Part shown: positions 18,469 to 59,195 of the stretch, piece by piece
How the letters are laid out: each line of letters begins with the position of its first letter
How positions within the stretch are numbered: the first letter of the stretch is position 1
Source: an uncultured Gemmatimonadota bacterium
GTDB taxonomy: Bacteria > Blakebacterota > Blakebacteria > Blakebacterales > Blakebacteraceae
Assembly: GCA_964576115.1 (NCBI GenBank)
Contig: CAZNUA010000003.1
Location: 15,116-79,115, forward strand
Length of the DNA stretch: 64,000 nucleotides
Reading direction: 5' to 3'
The notes under the pieces: generated by a model
Databases searched by the model: none
Told to the model about the DNA's origin: nothing
The model's input: only the letters and a program-made list of their open reading frames with translations
Position numbers and translations under genes: made by a program

Positions 18469-19662
18469 CTAATTAATTCCCGACATTACTCGCACCCATC
18501 CGGAGTATCCGGATGGGCACGAACAGTCTACCTGCTGCCTGCCGTCCAGGGGAGGCTCCGGGCGTCCCATCTCGAACAGGTAGCGCTCCAGACGTTCGAT
18601 CATGGTCTCCTCGCGGTAGTGCTCCTCGATACATCGTCTGCCCACGCGGGCGAACCGGCGGCGCAGTTCGGGTTCGACCGCCAACCGGTGGAGTTCGGAC
18701 GCCAGGCCGTCGACCTCGCCGGGGTCGACGAGCAAACCGTTCTGGCCGTGTTTGATGATCTCGGGTATCCCACCGATCCGGGATCCGATGACCGGTACAT
18801 GGAAAGCCATGGCTTCGATCAGAACCTGCCCGAAAGTCTCATACGGCGTGGTCGAAGGCAGGACCAGAACATCGAAGGCGGGCATGACGGCATCGGGATC
18901 GTCAAGGTGACCGGTGAAAACGATCTGCAGGTTACCCCGGGCGACCGCCTCGGCGCGAGTCCTGAGTTCGCTCTCCATCGAGCCCGAGCCCACCAGCACC
19001 AGGGCGGTCAGGGGACGGGTGTGCGCCAGCTGTACGGCCGCCTCGAGCAAGTCCTGGAAGCCCTTGTGCGGTTCCAGACGACCGACGCCGCCGATGACGA
19101 AATGGTCGGGGGTGAAACCGAAGGCGGTGCGGGTGGGACCCCGACCGCCGTAACGGGCGCGAGCCCGATCGACCCGGGCCAGTTCGATCCCGTTGGGGAT
19201 ATTCTGTACCCGCACTCCCTGCATCCAGGGATATGCTTCGATCGTCCGGCGCACCTCCCGGCTGGGGGTGATGATGCCGTCGAGGTGGCGGCGGTAGAGT
19301 CGCTGATGACGGACCGACGTGTCGAGCATCGGCAATACGCTGCGCATGACGAGATGGCGCAGGGGACTGCGGCGCCGGGCTCGTGCGGCCTGGATCAGAT
19401 CCTTGTTGTAGTTGACGATCGCGATGGTGGCTCCGTTGCGGCGGGCGGCCCGGGCCAGGGCGGCCGAACGCAGCGGATCATAGTCGGCTCCTCCGGCCCC
19501 GGCGACGATGGCGAGATCGGCGCCGGCCGAACGCTCTGCCAGCATGCTCCGGGGCCGGGCGCAGATCCCCACGGTGTGACCGCGCGAACTGAGCCCGCGG
19601 GCGGCGCGTACCATCCACTGCTCCACCCCCCCGAATACGTCGGCAGGCGTCGAGTTGAGCAT
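18469..19662 (-). CDS. Glycosyltransferase family 1 (GT4-like)
   Basis: N-terminal GGVEQWMV and the C-terminal GT1 signature EPHKGF...VLPSTTPYETFGQVLIEAMAFHVPVIGSRIGGIPEII. The last ~25 codons overlap the palindromic repeat element at 18495-18517. Confidence 0.75.
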   Translation of the reverse strand: MLNSTPADVFGGVEQWMVRAARGLSSRGHTVGICARPRSMLAERSAGADLAIVAGAGGADYDPLRSAALARAARRNGATIAIVNYNKDLIQAARARRRSPLRHLVMRSVLPMLDTSVRHQRLYRRHLDGIITPSREVRRTIEAYPWMQGVRVQNIPNGIELARVDRARARYGGRGPTRTAFGFTPDHFVIGGVGRLEPHKGFQDLLEAAVQLAHTRPLTALVLVGSGSMESELRTRAEAVARGNLQIVFTGHLDDPDAVMPAFDVLVLPSTTPYETFGQVLIEAMAFHVPVIGSRIGGIPEIIKHGQNGLLVDPGEVDGLASELHRLAVEPELRRRFARVGRRCIEEHYREETMIERLERYLFEMGRPEPPLDGRQQVDCSCPSGYSGWVRVMSGIN

Positions 19663-19747: not shown

Positions 19748-20335
19748 TCACGTTGCAGGGTCGGGATTCCCTTCCAGACCGATCTCGGCGGCAATCCCCT
19801 GCATGGCTTCGAGTACGACTCCGACGTGTTCGGCGACCTCGAGTCCCAGTTCTGCCGCACCGGTGGCGATGTCCTCGCGGTTCACCATGGCGGCAAAGGA
19901 ACGGTCCTTGAATTTCTTTGTGACCGATTTCACCTTCACGTCGTGAATCGATTTGCTCGGTCGCACCAACGCCACCGCCACGATGAAGCCGGTGAGTTCG
20001 TCCACAGCGAAAAGAGCTTTGGACATGAGGGTTTCCCGGGGCACGCCGGTGTAGGGAGCGTGAGCCAGCACGGCGTCTATCACATCCTTCGGGTACCCCT
20101 CTTCTTCGAGAACCCGGGCCCCCACTCGTGGGTGCTCTTCAGCCGTCGGGTGCTTCTCGTAATCCAGGTCGTGGACGAGCCCTGTCACGGCCCATCTTTC
20201 CTCGTCTTCATCGAAACGGCGGGCGTAGGCGCGCATTGCGGCTTCGACCGCCAGGGCGTGGTGGAGCAGGTTCTCCTTCTGCGTCCAGGCTGTCAGCAGT
20301 TGCCAGGCTGCCTCTCGGTTCGGTTCCATATCCAT
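19748..20335 (-). CDS. HD-domain (HDIG-type) phosphohydrolase
   Basis: HHALAVEAAM...GLVHDLDYEK His-Asp metal-binding pattern. 195 aa. Confidence 0.65.
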   Translation of the reverse strand: MDMEPNREAAWQLLTAWTQKENLLHHALAVEAAMRAYARRFDEDEERWAVTGLVHDLDYEKHPTAEEHPRVGARVLEEEGYPKDVIDAVLAHAPYTGVPRETLMSKALFAVDELTGFIVAVALVRPSKSIHDVKVKSVTKKFKDRSFAAMVNREDIATGAAELGLEVAEHVGVVLEAMQGIAAEIGLEGNPDPAT

Positions 20336-20379
20336 ACCTCGTTCCCGTCCAGCGAGGGCTCTTCGGGGAGCGTCTGCTT

Positions 20380-20640
20380 CGGGAACACCGCTCGTGCCCG
20401 TCCGGAGTCTCCGGATGAAGACAAGCGCATGTGGCCTCCGTCAGGCGCAGTATAGGCGGTGAGTCCCGAAAGGGTCAACGGAGGCGGAGGCGAAACTGCT
20501 TTACCGGATGAAGCCGGTGTTCGGATTCGCTACACTAGTTCCCGTCCGGAAACGGCTCGTTTCCGCCTCGGGAACCACGCTCGTGTCCATCCGGAGTTTC
20601 CGGATGGACGCTACACTAGGCTCCTGTCCCAAGTGGAGGT
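20380..20640. repeat. Cluster of related short hairpin-forming repeats: two copies of a ~40-bp unit with the palindrome core TCCGGAGT(C/T)TCCGGA, two copies of CGCTACACTAG and an 8-3-8 inverted repeat CGGAAACG-GCT-CGTTTCCG
   Basis: Read directly. 20381-20420 and 20566-20609 align at ~85% identity (gggaacNacgctcgtgYccRtccggagtYtccggatgRa). No credible ORF spans the 400-bp gap 20336-20743. Confidence 0.6.
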
Positions 20641-20743
20641 TTGCGGGCGAACGGCTCCCGAAAAAGCAGGACGCTTCCTGCGTATCAATACCGGTCGGGG
20701 GCATCGGGCTCCGCAATCCGGTCGAAGATGTCAGGAGAAGAAG

Positions 20744-21301
20744 ATGGAAATCGTCCTCATAGTGATCGGTGCGATCGCGGTTCTGATCATTCTCTGGGTG
20801 ATCGGCGTGTACAACGCTCTCGTCGCCCTGCGCAACCGGGTTCGCAACGCCTGGTCGCAGATCGACGTTCAGCTCAAGCGCCGCTACGATCTGATCCCCA
20901 ATCTCGTCGAAGCCGTGAAGGACTACATGGAGTACGAGCAGGAAACCCTGCAGCGGGTGATCGAGGCGCGCAACCAGGCCATCGACGCCGAAGGCGTCAA
21001 AGCCCAGGGCGAGGCCGAGAACATGCTCACCGGGGCACTGCGCCAGCTCTTCGCCCTGGTTGAAAACTACCCCGATCTAAAGGCCAACCAGAATGTGATG
21101 TCGCTGCAGGAGGAACTGACCAGCACCGAGAACAAGATTTCCTTCTCGCGCCAGCACTACAACGACATGGTCATGACCTTCAACACCCGGATCGAACAGT
21201 TTCCGGCCAATATCGTGGCCGGGATGTTTACCTTCGGCCAGGAAGACTTCTTCGAGATCGGCGAGGCCGAGCGCGAGGTCCCCCGGGTCGATCTGCGCTG
21301 A
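20744..21301 (+). CDS. LemA-family membrane protein
   Basis: N-terminal TM helix, then the LemA core (ALVALRNRVRNAWSQIDVQLKRRYDLIPNLVE...ENYPDLKANQNV...SFSRQHYNDMVMTFNTRIEQFPANIVAGMF). RBS AGGAGAAG precedes the ATG. Confidence 0.85.
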   Translation: MEIVLIVIGAIAVLIILWVIGVYNALVALRNRVRNAWSQIDVQLKRRYDLIPNLVEAVKDYMEYEQETLQRVIEARNQAIDAEGVKAQGEAENMLTGALRQLFALVENYPDLKANQNVMSLQEELTSTENKISFSRQHYNDMVMTFNTRIEQFPANIVAGMFTFGQEDFFEIGEAEREVPRVDLR

Positions 21302-52656: not shown

Positions 52657-52937
52657 GATGCTCAAGACGGGTCGGGCTCGCCGCAGGGCTTACGTTCCCG
52701 CGGCGACCGTCGGAGCGCACATACCCGTCCGGCACCCTTTTTCCCCGACGGGCCCCGGTTTCTTCAACCGGGGCCCGTTACATAAGGTATGCAGGCGGGG
52801 TTTCGGAAATCTTCAGACACACCGGGTGTTCTTGAACCCGATTCCTGTCCCTCCGGAGTTCCCGGAGAAGTGCCATTTCGTGACCATCAGGCAGACTGAC
52901 ACCCGGATCGCGGGAAAGAGCCGTTTCTGGACGGGCA

Positions 52938-54101
52938 CTATTTCAGGGTCGCGTCCTGCAGCAGTGAGTTGGCGCTGCCGGTTGCACCGGTGGCGAAGAT
53001 GACATGGGGTACATCCAGACCGTCGACCACGATGGCGAAAACCATCAATCGGTTGCGGTAGCTCTGCCAGGCGGCGTCTTCGAGGACCGGCAGGGCTGTC
53101 GCCCAGTTCGTTCCCGGGTCGTCTGCGGCGCGGGTCAGCAGGTAGAGGTTATAGCGACTGGCGCCCTGGTACTTGCCGACGACCACATAGGGTTTATCCG
53201 CGGCCGTCGTTGTGGCGGCGGAGTGCGAGAGGAAAGGCTCATCGACCGGTACCACCTCGGCGATATTCAGGGTGAGTTCTTCCTGCCAGTACACGACCTG
53301 GCTCACGGGATCGAGTCCTCCGACCAGGCGCACCCGGCCGTCGGACGTGGCGAACATATGTGCGTCCTCTACGGTGTAGATGTCGGGGGGGAAACTCCGA
53401 GTGACGTTGCTGTCAGGACCGGATTTGTTGAAATACATCTTCCCGCTCAGGGAATTCCGGAAAAGCGTGTACCCCATGCCGCTCGCATCGATGTCGAAGT
53501 CATAGGCTTCGGCGTTCGACGTCGAACCGGTGATCTGGGCGAGCCCCCAGCCGGTGTCGGCCAGGGTGGCGCGATACAGAGGCCCGCCCCGTGCGTTGAG
53601 GGCCGCCACCGGACGTCCCGTCGCATCGGCTCCCAGTGCCGAGCCTGTGCTGTCCCACACCGTCTCGCCGAACGGGGGAATGCTCAGGGTGGAATCGGCC
53701 AGCCCTCCGAGCCGGTACAGCCTGACCCCGTCGGTTTCATGGCCGGCCAGTACCCACCAGCCGCCGCCGGCCTGGGGAGCGATATCCACGACCGTCGTCT
53801 GCAGGCCGCTCTCGTCCAGGGTGGCCACCTCGACCCAGGAGCCCGACGTGTTCTCGACTACCGTGATTTCATCCAGGCCGATCCCGATGGCCAATCCCAT
53901 GCGGCCGTCGTCGGTACTGACACCCTTGACACACCAGATTGCTGCAGGGTCGATAACCGGCGTAAAGGTGAAGTCGGCGGTGTTCAGCCGGGCGGATCGG
54001 TCCTCATTGTAGGGATCGCGCGTACAGGCGGATGCCGTCAGAATGAGTCCGATGAAGAGTATCCCGAACACGGTCCCTGTCTGGAATTTTCGCGTCGTCA
54101 T
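52938..54101 (-). CDS. Hypothetical lipoprotein, probably beta-propeller-like
   Basis: Lipobox GLILTASAC. Repeated Gly/Trp/Asp-rich beta-strand segments. Confidence 0.5.
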   Translation of the reverse strand: MTTRKFQTGTVFGILFIGLILTASACTRDPYNEDRSARLNTADFTFTPVIDPAAIWCVKGVSTDDGRMGLAIGIGLDEITVVENTSGSWVEVATLDESGLQTTVVDIAPQAGGGWWVLAGHETDGVRLYRLGGLADSTLSIPPFGETVWDSTGSALGADATGRPVAALNARGGPLYRATLADTGWGLAQITGSTSNAEAYDFDIDASGMGYTLFRNSLSGKMYFNKSGPDSNVTRSFPPDIYTVEDAHMFATSDGRVRLVGGLDPVSQVVYWQEELTLNIAEVVPVDEPFLSHSAATTTAADKPYVVVGKYQGASRYNLYLLTRAADDPGTNWATALPVLEDAAWQSYRNRLMVFAIVVDGLDVPHVIFATGATGSANSLLQDATLK

Positions 54102-59162: not shown

Positions 59163-59195
59163 CGGTACCGGTCCGGAGTGTCCGGACCGGTACCG
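59163..59195. repeat. 33-bp perfect palindrome CGGTACCGGTCCGGA-GTG-TCCGGACCGGTACCG in the sufS 5-prime region; carries the same TCCGGAGTNTCCGGA core as the repeats at 18499, 20401 and 20590
   Basis: Read directly. The arms are exact reverse complements. Confidence 0.6.

Follow-up and report, generated by a model that had tools for sequence, protein, structure and literature searches.

Probable decayed MITE copies in the divergent promoter region of an HD-domain gene and lemA, from a widespread and apparently unnamed family

Introduction

The classical bacterial MITEs, such as the Correia/NEMIS elements of Neisseria, ERIC, and RUP, are short, non-coding sequences with terminal inverted repeats and a target-site duplication; they are present in multiple, mostly intergenic copies, form long hairpins, often lie in promoters or leaders, and include internal-deletion variants (PMC10969869; PMC3184786). 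Another such element, Chunjie, is known from Geobacter uraniireducens Rf4; it measures 178-235 bp and has many partial copies (PMC3184786; PMC10969869), and its 21-bp inverted repeats, A+T-rich sequence, and 9-bp direct repeats (e.g., ACGACCGGT) are reported (PMC3184786; PMC6042816).

In the current study, we describe the 408-nt gap between an HD-domain gene and lemA (positions 20336-20743) within a 64-kb window, that is, the whole 64,000-nt stretch of DNA that was analysed. A sequence-only reading of this gap had proposed either a cluster of small mobile repeats, termed REP/MITE-like, or a structured sRNA with repeated stem-loops. Our analysis indicates that the gap very probably holds two internally deleted MITE copies (hereafter units A and B), set in a divergent promoter region and belonging to a family that would be moved by an ISNCY transposase acting in trans.

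Repeats, Folding, and Reading Frames in the Gap

The two flanking genes had been called convergent-divergent; they are divergent, with the HD gene on the minus strand and lemA on the plus strand. A repeat finder recovered the two units of about 40 bp, estimated earlier to be about 85% identical, as a 45-nt direct repeat (20373-20417 and 20562-20606) with 84% identity, together with a second related block (20338-20361 and 20535-20558) with 79% identity. The cores of the units were found at 20401 (TCCGGAGTCTCCGGA) and 20590 (TCCGGAGTTTCCGGA), and the positions given previously for the repeated CGCTACACTAG (20528 and 20609) and for the 8-3-8 inverted repeat CGGAAACG-GCT-CGTTTCCG (20547-20565) proved exact. 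The 10-mer CCGGATGAAG does occur twice, but at 20411 and 20504 rather than at 20412 and 20497, and its recurrence is probably due to chance, because the copy at 20504 falls within promoter DNA that is native to the locus and conserved among relatives.

The core TCCGGA-GTN-TCCGGA (TCCGGAGTNTCCGGA) has four exact sites in the 64-kb window, at 18499, 20401, 20590, and 59172. When up to two mismatches were allowed, 9 matches were obtained in the window against 1.3 expected, a count reached by none of 100 shuffles, and the repeat signal in the gap is real and non-random. All four exact core hairpins carry their GTN on the plus strand of the window; a strand bias was considered on this account and rejected, being not significant and contradicted by a minus-strand fragment (Table 1). 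Folding of the 408-nt gap against shuffles gave z = -5.0 for the plus strand and z = -4.2 for the minus strand, and a scan for tRNA and tmRNA returned none. The gap had also been described as devoid of convincing open reading frames. Reading frames do occur there; the one at 20501-20716 on the minus strand (67-71 aa), which overlaps unit B and is called as a gene of 67 aa in a JGI record, has no Pfam match, and this call is probably spurious.

Table 1. Positions of the genes, promoter, element copies, and target-site duplications in the window
Feature	Position	Strand	Basis or remark
Minimal decayed copy, 45 nt, ATTCCCGAC...CCCATCCGGA-GTA-TCCGGATGGGCAC	18476-18520	+	nhmmer, E = 5e-5
HD-domain gene	19748-20335	-	
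Unit A, decayed internally deleted MITE copy, 82 nt	20341-20422	+	nhmmer, alignment, empty site
HD promoter, native sigma-70-type, TTGACC-18 nt-TATACT	20449-20478	-	promoter scan, 10/12
Left target-site duplication TACACTA, 7 bp	20531-20537	+	direct repeat; register fits TARYTA
Unit B, internally deleted MITE copy, 74 nt	20538-20611	+	nhmmer, L066 alignment, fold
Right target-site duplication TACACTA, 7 bp	20612-20618	+	direct repeat; register fits TARYTA
lemA gene	20744-21301	+	M48 peptidase gene next after lemA
Two abutting remnants	52826-52938	both	nhmmer, L066 alignment
Degenerate right end (within the remnants)	~52826-52875	+	nhmmer, E = 0.025
Left-end fragment GTGCCCGTCCAGAAACGGCTCTTTCCCGCG... 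(within the remnants)	52883-52938	-	nhmmer, E = 7.9e-6
Perfect hairpin, 29 nt, GTACCGGTCCGGA-GTG-TCCGGACCGGTAC	59165-59193	+	fold, z = -7.1

Anatomy and Distribution of the MITE Family

The full-length element has a modal length of 176-177 nt among 97 copies with both ends and contains no ORF. Its terminal inverted repeats are 16 nt long, with the left end reading GTTTCC(A/G)TCCGGAAAC or GTTTCC(A/G)TCCGGAAACGG and the reverse complement of the right end reading GTNTCCATCCGGAAAC. A further, inward-facing repeat copy lies directly next to the terminal one, which is why the right end (...CCATCCGGA-GTT-TCCGGATGGNNAC) folds into a terminal hairpin, CCATCCGGA-GTT-TCCGGATGG. Deletion derivatives of two size classes (51-54 nt and 71-73 nt), similar to the copies in the window, recur among the 97 copies, and minimal hairpins composed of the two end repeats alone also occur in the family. 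Perfect flanking duplications border 41 of the 97 copies (34 at 6 bp and 7 at 7 bp), all in a single register, and a further 26 copies have duplications with one mismatch, while shuffled pairing of the flanks yields 1.8 perfect ones. The consensus of the duplicated site is T-A-R-Y-T-A.

Had the units been unique to this locus, a chance local duplication would have been the natural explanation in the eyes of the sequence-only reading; instead, the family pattern CCNTCCGGAGTNTCCGGATG matches at least 119 stretches in metagenome contigs (35-68% G+C) and at least 117 stretches in GTDB genomes. Among the 117 GTDB loci listed, 105 match the full-length model, several genomes supplying many loci each. 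The listed matches fall mostly in Desulfobacterota (Geobacter, Desulfuromonadales, Syntrophobacteraceae, Desulfobulbaceae, and Desulfobacterales), and those outside this phylum include a Zixibacteria MAG (L162), a Gemmatimonadota MAG (L156), and a Chloroflexota MAG (L227). Twelve listed matches (in Methanosarcina, Micromonospora, Pseudomonas, and others), none of which fits the full-length nhmmer model at E <= 1e-3, are possibly chance or hairpin-only hits. Four contigs (L156, L162, L002, and L027) end inside the element, as is typical of an assembly-breaking repeat. No description of the family was found in the searchable literature, Rfam, or a plasmid collection, ISfinder lying outside these searches, and the plasmid collection likewise gave no match when searched with the MITE.

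Autonomous ISNCY Partners

Insertion sequences of 1662-1684 bp with the same ends and duplications as the MITE encode an ISNCY-family transposase. In one example (L223), MITE-type ends bracket 1664 bp with a 460-aa ORF that scores 478.7 bits against the NCBIfam model NF033593 (ISNCY family transposase; cutoff 325), contains the Pfam domains DDE_Tnp_1 and DUF772, and has thousands of homologues, for which the NCBI name is ISNCY family transposase. A single genome holds four 1662-bp copies (L246-L249), the transposase of which is named for an uncultured Desulfuromonas sp.; all four have the ends GTGTCCATCCGGAAAC...TTTCCGGATGGACAC, and their perfect duplications are TAGTTA, TACACTA, TAACTA, and TACCTA, with the TACACTA of L247 being identical to that of unit B. 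A relative with 70% identity (L250) has the ends GTGCCCATCCGGAAAC and the duplication CAGTTA. In ISRm17 from Sinorhizobium meliloti, the transposase of which has 49% identity, GTGCCCGTCCATAAAC forms the ends and TAGCTA is duplicated.

No ISNCY transposase was detected in the 64-kb window by tblastn, and none lies between the paired copies in three other loci (L078, L119, and L203), which are independent MITE copies only. The interior of the MITE was not found in the partner insertion sequences examined, the 16-nt ends alone being held in common. We infer that the ISNCY transposase acts on the MITE ends. The partners presumably belong to the ISDol1 subgroup of ISNCY. Members of this subgroup are 1.6-1.9 kb long and generate a 6-7-bp duplication, figures with which the 1662-1684 bp and the 6-7-bp duplications of the partners agree. 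ISDol1-type elements are reported to be abundant in a Desulfobacterales genome (PMC4046663).

Unit B and the lemA Promoter

Unit B consists, in order, of a left inverted repeat (GTTCCCGTCCGGAAAC), a foldback stub (GTTCCCG/CGGGAAC around the inverted repeat CGGAAACG-GCT-CGTTTCCG), a 7-nt linker, and a 13-bp terminal hairpin, GTGTCCATCCGGA-GTT-TCCGGATGGAC(GC); its terminal inverted repeats are GTTCCCGTCCGGAAAC and GCGTCCATCCGGAAAC. It matches a 33-copy full-length model with E = 4.8e-12 (nhmmer). Alignment to L066, a full-length copy, shows that ~105 internal nt are gone, 21 nt being kept at the left end and ~53 nt at the right; the identity is 94% to L066 and 90-92% to the copies in the Zixibacteria (L162) and Gemmatimonadota (L156) MAGs. 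The predicted fold of unit B has a free energy of -45.3 kcal/mol (z = -6.8), with very stable hairpins on both strands.

The repeated CGCTACACTAG at the two edges of unit B was considered as an 11-bp duplication and rejected, since the real duplication is the 7-bp TACACTA; of the extra bases, CGC represents the last three bases of the element, which match the flank, and G is the first base of the element. The left TACACTA coincides with the native -10 box of lemA (TACACT), the upstream context of which is also native, and three relatives (L003, L005, and L006) conserve this -10 region, TTCGCTACA(A/C)T, ahead of lemA. The insertion of unit B thus split and duplicated a conserved lemA -10 box. 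The upstream copy of the box, which keeps the native upstream DNA, would transcribe through unit B. No U-tract follows the hairpin of either unit, so that of unit B is not an obvious terminator. With its perfect TACACTA duplication, unit B is the younger of the two copies.

Unit A and the HD Promoter

Unit A is more degraded: its left end is GTTCCCGTCCAG..., its right hairpin is weakened (GTCCGGA-GTC-TCCGGAT), its right end is mutated, and no target-site duplication is recognisable. The right half matches the full-length model with E = 5.2e-5 (nhmmer), and the assignment of unit A to the MITE family is made by similarity only, at this value. Its fold is unremarkable, with z values of only -1.7 (plus strand) and -0.2 (minus strand). 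With mutated ends and no duplication, unit A is the older copy. Its boundaries are approximate, since the closest genome with an empty site has diverged in intergenic DNA.

Within the 5' leader of the HD gene, unit A separates the HD promoter from the ribosome-binding site (CCTC, plus-strand positions 20337-20340) and comes within one base of the latter. The promoter itself is located outside the mobile element, and both of its hexamers are conserved in four relatives (L003, L005, L006, and L009).

Empty Sites at Orthologous Loci

An identical JGI contig (L001) and syntenic loci in relatives were found via LemA, and the insertion is identical in independent assemblies of the organism. The best named relatives of LemA come from Zixibacteria and Gemmatimonadota MAGs, with ~86% identity, which places the host among uncultured bacteria close to these groups. 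In the closest relative (L003/L004), whose LemA is 96% identical, the sites of unit A and unit B are both empty; the HD-lemA gap there is 297 nt long versus 408 nt in the window, and the two units (82 + 74 nt) account for the extra length. The native parts common to both gaps include the HD promoter and the lemA -10 region, and the native divergent promoter region amounts to ~250 nt. No match to the core or to the family model was found in ~86 kb of orthologous loci of relatives. A comparison with orthologous lemA upstream regions had been proposed as a check, and its outcome favours mobile elements: native promoter DNA is shared, and both units are missing in L003/L004. Because they are missing at the orthologous loci, units A and B are lineage-specific insertions.

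Other Copies in the Window

In total, 5-6 copies or fragments are present in the 64-kb window. When aligned with the full-length L066, the copies in the window match its two ends; units A and B and the minimal copy at 18476-18520 are 45-82 nt long. The minimal, 45-nt copy is decayed and has no target-site duplication, but the TAATTA to its left agrees with the target consensus. This copy sits in the 3' tail of a GT4 ORF, in which GT4 homology stops 32 codons before the stop codon, and neither this segment nor the 32-codon tail has a counterpart in L003. Further downstream, the two abutting remnants are 86% identical to L066 over 51 nt (blastn).

The perfect 29-nt hairpin near the end of the window is probably a diverged relative of the family, a membership that is suggested by its form and not proven. 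It matches the minimal two-repeat hairpin of the family in length, in its GT...AC ends, and in its core; five stem positions differ and are changed on both arms. This hairpin was not detected by the full-length nhmmer model, and it is missing from the orthologous spacer of L027, in which the flanking genes are 70% identical.

Structure of the Full-Length Element

Analysis of 30 diverse copies with RNAalifold predicted that the first 145 nt of the full-length element form a foldback, which is followed by the terminal hairpin, with 96% of cells paired on this structure. Sixteen pairs change on both sides, as compared to 8.5 +/- 1.4 in shuffles (none of the 500 attained 16) and to 2-7 in a control in which the partners were slid by 1-3 columns. 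Two G-U pairs in the foldback are essentially invariant and fit an RNA fold of the plus strand, and the apical hairpin, TTGTGCGGCGTAC-N4-GTACGCCTCCGCGCAA, is almost invariant and absent from the partner insertion sequences. The copies in the window are without this conserved apical part of the family fold. The covariation could reflect selection at the RNA level, beyond the needs of transposition. Covariation in inverted repeats can also stem from symmetric protein binding or from the mode of origin of an element; it is not proof of a function as RNA, yet no other feature sets the element beyond a routine MITE.

Given the compensatory changes across phyla, the G-U pairs suited to one strand, and the near-invariant apical hairpin, one may picture the 177-nt element as a mobile gene for a structured RNA that has its own function, and the window copies as its dead stubs; we regard this as improbable. 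Such an RNA might, for example, recruit a host factor or the transposase, or it might act as a regulatory hairpin processed by an RNase. A search of the window against Rfam 15 at the gathering threshold gave no match, and a permissive search of the gap gave only hairpin noise; nine loci with full-length copies, and one full copy searched at permissive settings, were without a match as well. The Rfam scan that the sequence-only reading had recommended therefore produced no family for the window, the gap, or the full-length copies.

Proposed Mechanism

In the model that we favour, an ISNCY DDE transposase supplied in trans would recognise the 16-nt ends and move the element by a cut-and-paste or copy-in route, with staggered cuts at TARYTA-like sites that would leave a 6-7-bp duplication. 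Inserted copies would subsequently decay through internal deletion and point mutation. Both window copies have lost ~100 internal nt, so that only end-derived hairpins are left, and for that reason the gap appears packed with mutually related hairpins. The duplications and empty sites, taken together, argue that the MITE has been mobile, and the copies in the window are presumably immobile now. Because TARYTA resembles the -10 hexamer, promoters such as that of lemA may be preferred targets, and the two insertions might affect the expression of HD or lemA.

Alternative Explanations

A structured small RNA or cis-regulatory RNA encoded in the gap, with the repeated stem-loops as its functional units, is a very unlikely alternative to two MITE copies. 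The strong predicted fold of the gap, together with the compensatory changes and invariant G-U pairs of the full-length family, is in keeping with such an RNA, but no Rfam family was matched at either gathering or permissive thresholds, the units are missing from orthologous loci, members of the family lie, with target-site duplications, at unrelated positions, the conserved apical part is missing from the window copies, and no promoter or terminator is predicted for an independent transcript. The sRNA proposal of the sequence-only reading is therefore not upheld, the hairpins arising from the inverted-repeat anatomy, while its other proposal, a nest of small mobile elements of MITE type, is supported by the inverted repeats, the duplication at unit B, the empty sites, and the ISNCY partners. 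The REP label fares less well. REP or BIME-type palindromes spread by a RAYT (Y1 HuH) transposase would account for short, GC-rich, intergenic palindromes, for several copies within 64 kb, and for the four core hairpins all on the plus strand; this reading has a negligible probability in view of the true terminal inverted repeats and 6-7-bp duplications, the partnership with a DDE ISNCY insertion sequence whose ends are the same, the minus-strand fragment among the remnants, and the lack of a conserved GTAG-type 5' tetranucleotide. Equally remote is a chance local tandem duplication of ~190 bp, to which the spacing of the units (189-197 bp apart) and their common orientation would conform: the native promoter region that separates the units has not been duplicated, each unit separately matches the family at many other loci (the at least 119 metagenome and 117 GTDB stretches noted above), and unit B carries its own target-site duplication.

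A different possibility adds to the MITE origin and does not replace it, namely, that the fossils have been co-opted, with the hairpins of unit B in the lemA leader or promoter and the reverse complement of unit A in the HD leader modulating transcription, mRNA stability, or translation. Regulatory modulation of such kinds has been reported for Correia and ERIC elements. The placement of unit B exactly in a conserved -10 box, which it duplicates, and of unit A downstream of a conserved HD promoter and a single base away from the HD ribosome-binding site would suit such a role, as would the very stable hairpins of unit B on both strands and the identity of the insertion in independent assemblies of the organism. 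Nevertheless, relatives do without the insertions, the structure of unit A is decaying (z = -1.7 and -0.2), which argues against selection on that unit, and neither hairpin is backed by a U-tract; co-option is thus unlikely. Two further candidates were rejected. An IS200/IS605-derived origin (PATE or a TnpB guide-RNA end), considered for the terminal hairpin, conflicts with the duplications, the true inverted repeats, and the DDE partner. A "guide pairs with target" interpretation of the extended stems fails because the flanking repeats are in-register 6-7-bp duplications; the stems look extended only on account of the TA at either end of the duplication.

Implications

Two decayed MITE copies make for an ordinary locus, and the new part is a widespread family that is apparently unnamed. 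A candidate sRNA or regulatory locus is thereby removed from the window, and MITE copies explain the oversized HD-lemA gap, the spurious 67-aa gene call, and the 32-aa tail of the glycosyltransferase. The family is very common in MAGs of Desulfobacterota and also occurs in several other phyla, with an ISRm17-type ISNCY element as its partner. Its TARYTA target resembles promoter -10 boxes. Elements of this type can rewire promoters and seed false gene calls; they also break metagenome assemblies, as seen in the several contigs of relatives that end inside the element. Sediment and peat MAGs would be better annotated with a model of the family.

Comparison with Known Elements

The family has the hallmarks of a bacterial MITE: it is short and non-coding, has inverted repeats and a target-site duplication, occurs in multiple copies with empty sites, and has an autonomous partner. 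It shares with Correia/NEMIS, ERIC, and RUP the traits given for classical MITEs in the Introduction and differs from them in sequence, transposase family, and duplication. For example, Correia elements duplicate TA. The extra inward-facing end repeat, which creates the terminal 13-bp hairpin, and the distribution over several phyla also set the present family apart from the classical ones. Chunjie is similar in size, in host group (Geobacter), and in its many partial copies; on its published features it was rejected as the identity of the family, its 9-bp repeats and 21-bp ends contrasting with 6-7-bp TARYTA duplications and 16-nt ends.

REP and REPIN elements, which are mobilised with RAYT, resemble the window copies as short, intergenic, GC-rich hairpins in multiple copies, but REPs have neither target-site duplications nor terminal inverted repeats and depend on a Y1 HuH transposase. 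The closest likeness is to ISRm17-type ISNCY elements, with which the family shares near-identical ends (GTGCCCGTCCATAAAC in ISRm17, GTGCCCATCCGGAAAC in L250, and GTTCCCGTCCGGAAAC and GTGCCCGTCCAGAAAC in the window), 6-7-bp duplications at TARYTA sites (TAGCTA, TAGTTA, and TACACTA), and a host range dominated by Desulfobacterota. Unlike these insertion sequences, the MITE (45-82 nt in the window and 177 nt at full length) has no transposase gene, and its copies would be non-autonomous passengers of the ISNCY system.

Constraint on the full-length element

The full-length 177-nt MITE was studied through loci gathered by pattern scans of metagenomes (L010-L128) and of GTDB genomes (L129-L245), such as L030:5311-5486 and L066:3422-3599. 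Its 145-nt foldback is preserved by compensatory changes, with both sides altered in 16 pairs, a number attained in none of 500 shuffles, and the G-U pairs within it are near-invariant. Hardly any variation is seen in the apical hairpin, TTGTGCGGCGTAC-N4-GTACGCCTCCGCGCAA, which was not found in the partner insertion sequences. The constraint on this element is greater than a passive MITE would need.

Remnants and related features in the window

Features of the window related to or neighboring MITE copies
Feature	Position	Strand or sequence	Basis
GT4 C-terminal tail with MITE debris	18469-18567	-	Comparison with the orthologue in L003, a relative
Candidate left-end fragment	18541-18560	TGCCGTCCAGGGGAGGCTC	Likeness to the left end of unit A
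ORF of 67-71 aa	20501-20716 (L001:9360-9563 in the identical JGI contig)	-	Gene call in JGI record
Conserved block in the lemA 5' leader	20655-20700	CTGAAA ... CGTATCA	lemA leaders of relatives (L003, L005, L006)
Abutting MITE remnants	52826-52938	Degenerate right end (+), left-end fragment (-)	Same family
Perfect hairpin, 13-bp stem and 3-nt loop	59165-59193	GTACCGGTCCGGA-GTG-TCCGGACCGGTAC	Upstream of class-V aminotransferase gene

The GT4 glycosyltransferase ORF extends 32 codons beyond the point where homology to its orthologue stops, reading through MITE debris to a stop codon that falls within the following gene's conserved promoter; mobile-element DNA therefore now codes for its C-terminal tail. 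The candidate left-end fragment resembles the variant left end of unit A (CCCGTCCAGCGAGGGCTC), one of the internally deleted copies between HD and lemA, and may be an additional piece of the family adjoining the decayed copy at 18476-18520. The abutting remnants represent either a nested or a rearranged insertion.

The HD-lemA spacer is a site of repeated change: in a relative (L009:9573-9776), a 67-aa dodecin gene lies where the window carries MITE copies. The short ORF of the spacer, for which Pfam returned no match, overlaps the lemA leader as well as unit B, the second deleted copy; it is probably a spurious gene annotation that arose through the MITE insertion. The conserved leader block, which lies outside the MITE and is kept in four lineages despite diverged surrounding DNA, may represent a native motif of the leader or one with a regulatory role.

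Assembly breaks and insertion-sequence partners

Contigs of the window's organism and its relatives begin or end inside the MITE (L002:1, L027:1-80, the contig end of L156, and L162:2-67), showing that the repeat fragments metagenome assemblies. L223:1-1860 holds a complete ISNCY insertion sequence (3-1666) back to back with an oppositely oriented MITE copy (1672-1847); because a single TAGCTA separates the two and another follows the MITE, the sequence suggests that one target was used repeatedly.

The 29-nt architecture of the hairpin upstream of the aminotransferase gene, missing from the orthologous spacer of L027, matches the minimal hairpin of the MITE family, with five stem positions differing on both arms, and may be the sign of a sister insertion-sequence lineage with another end specificity.
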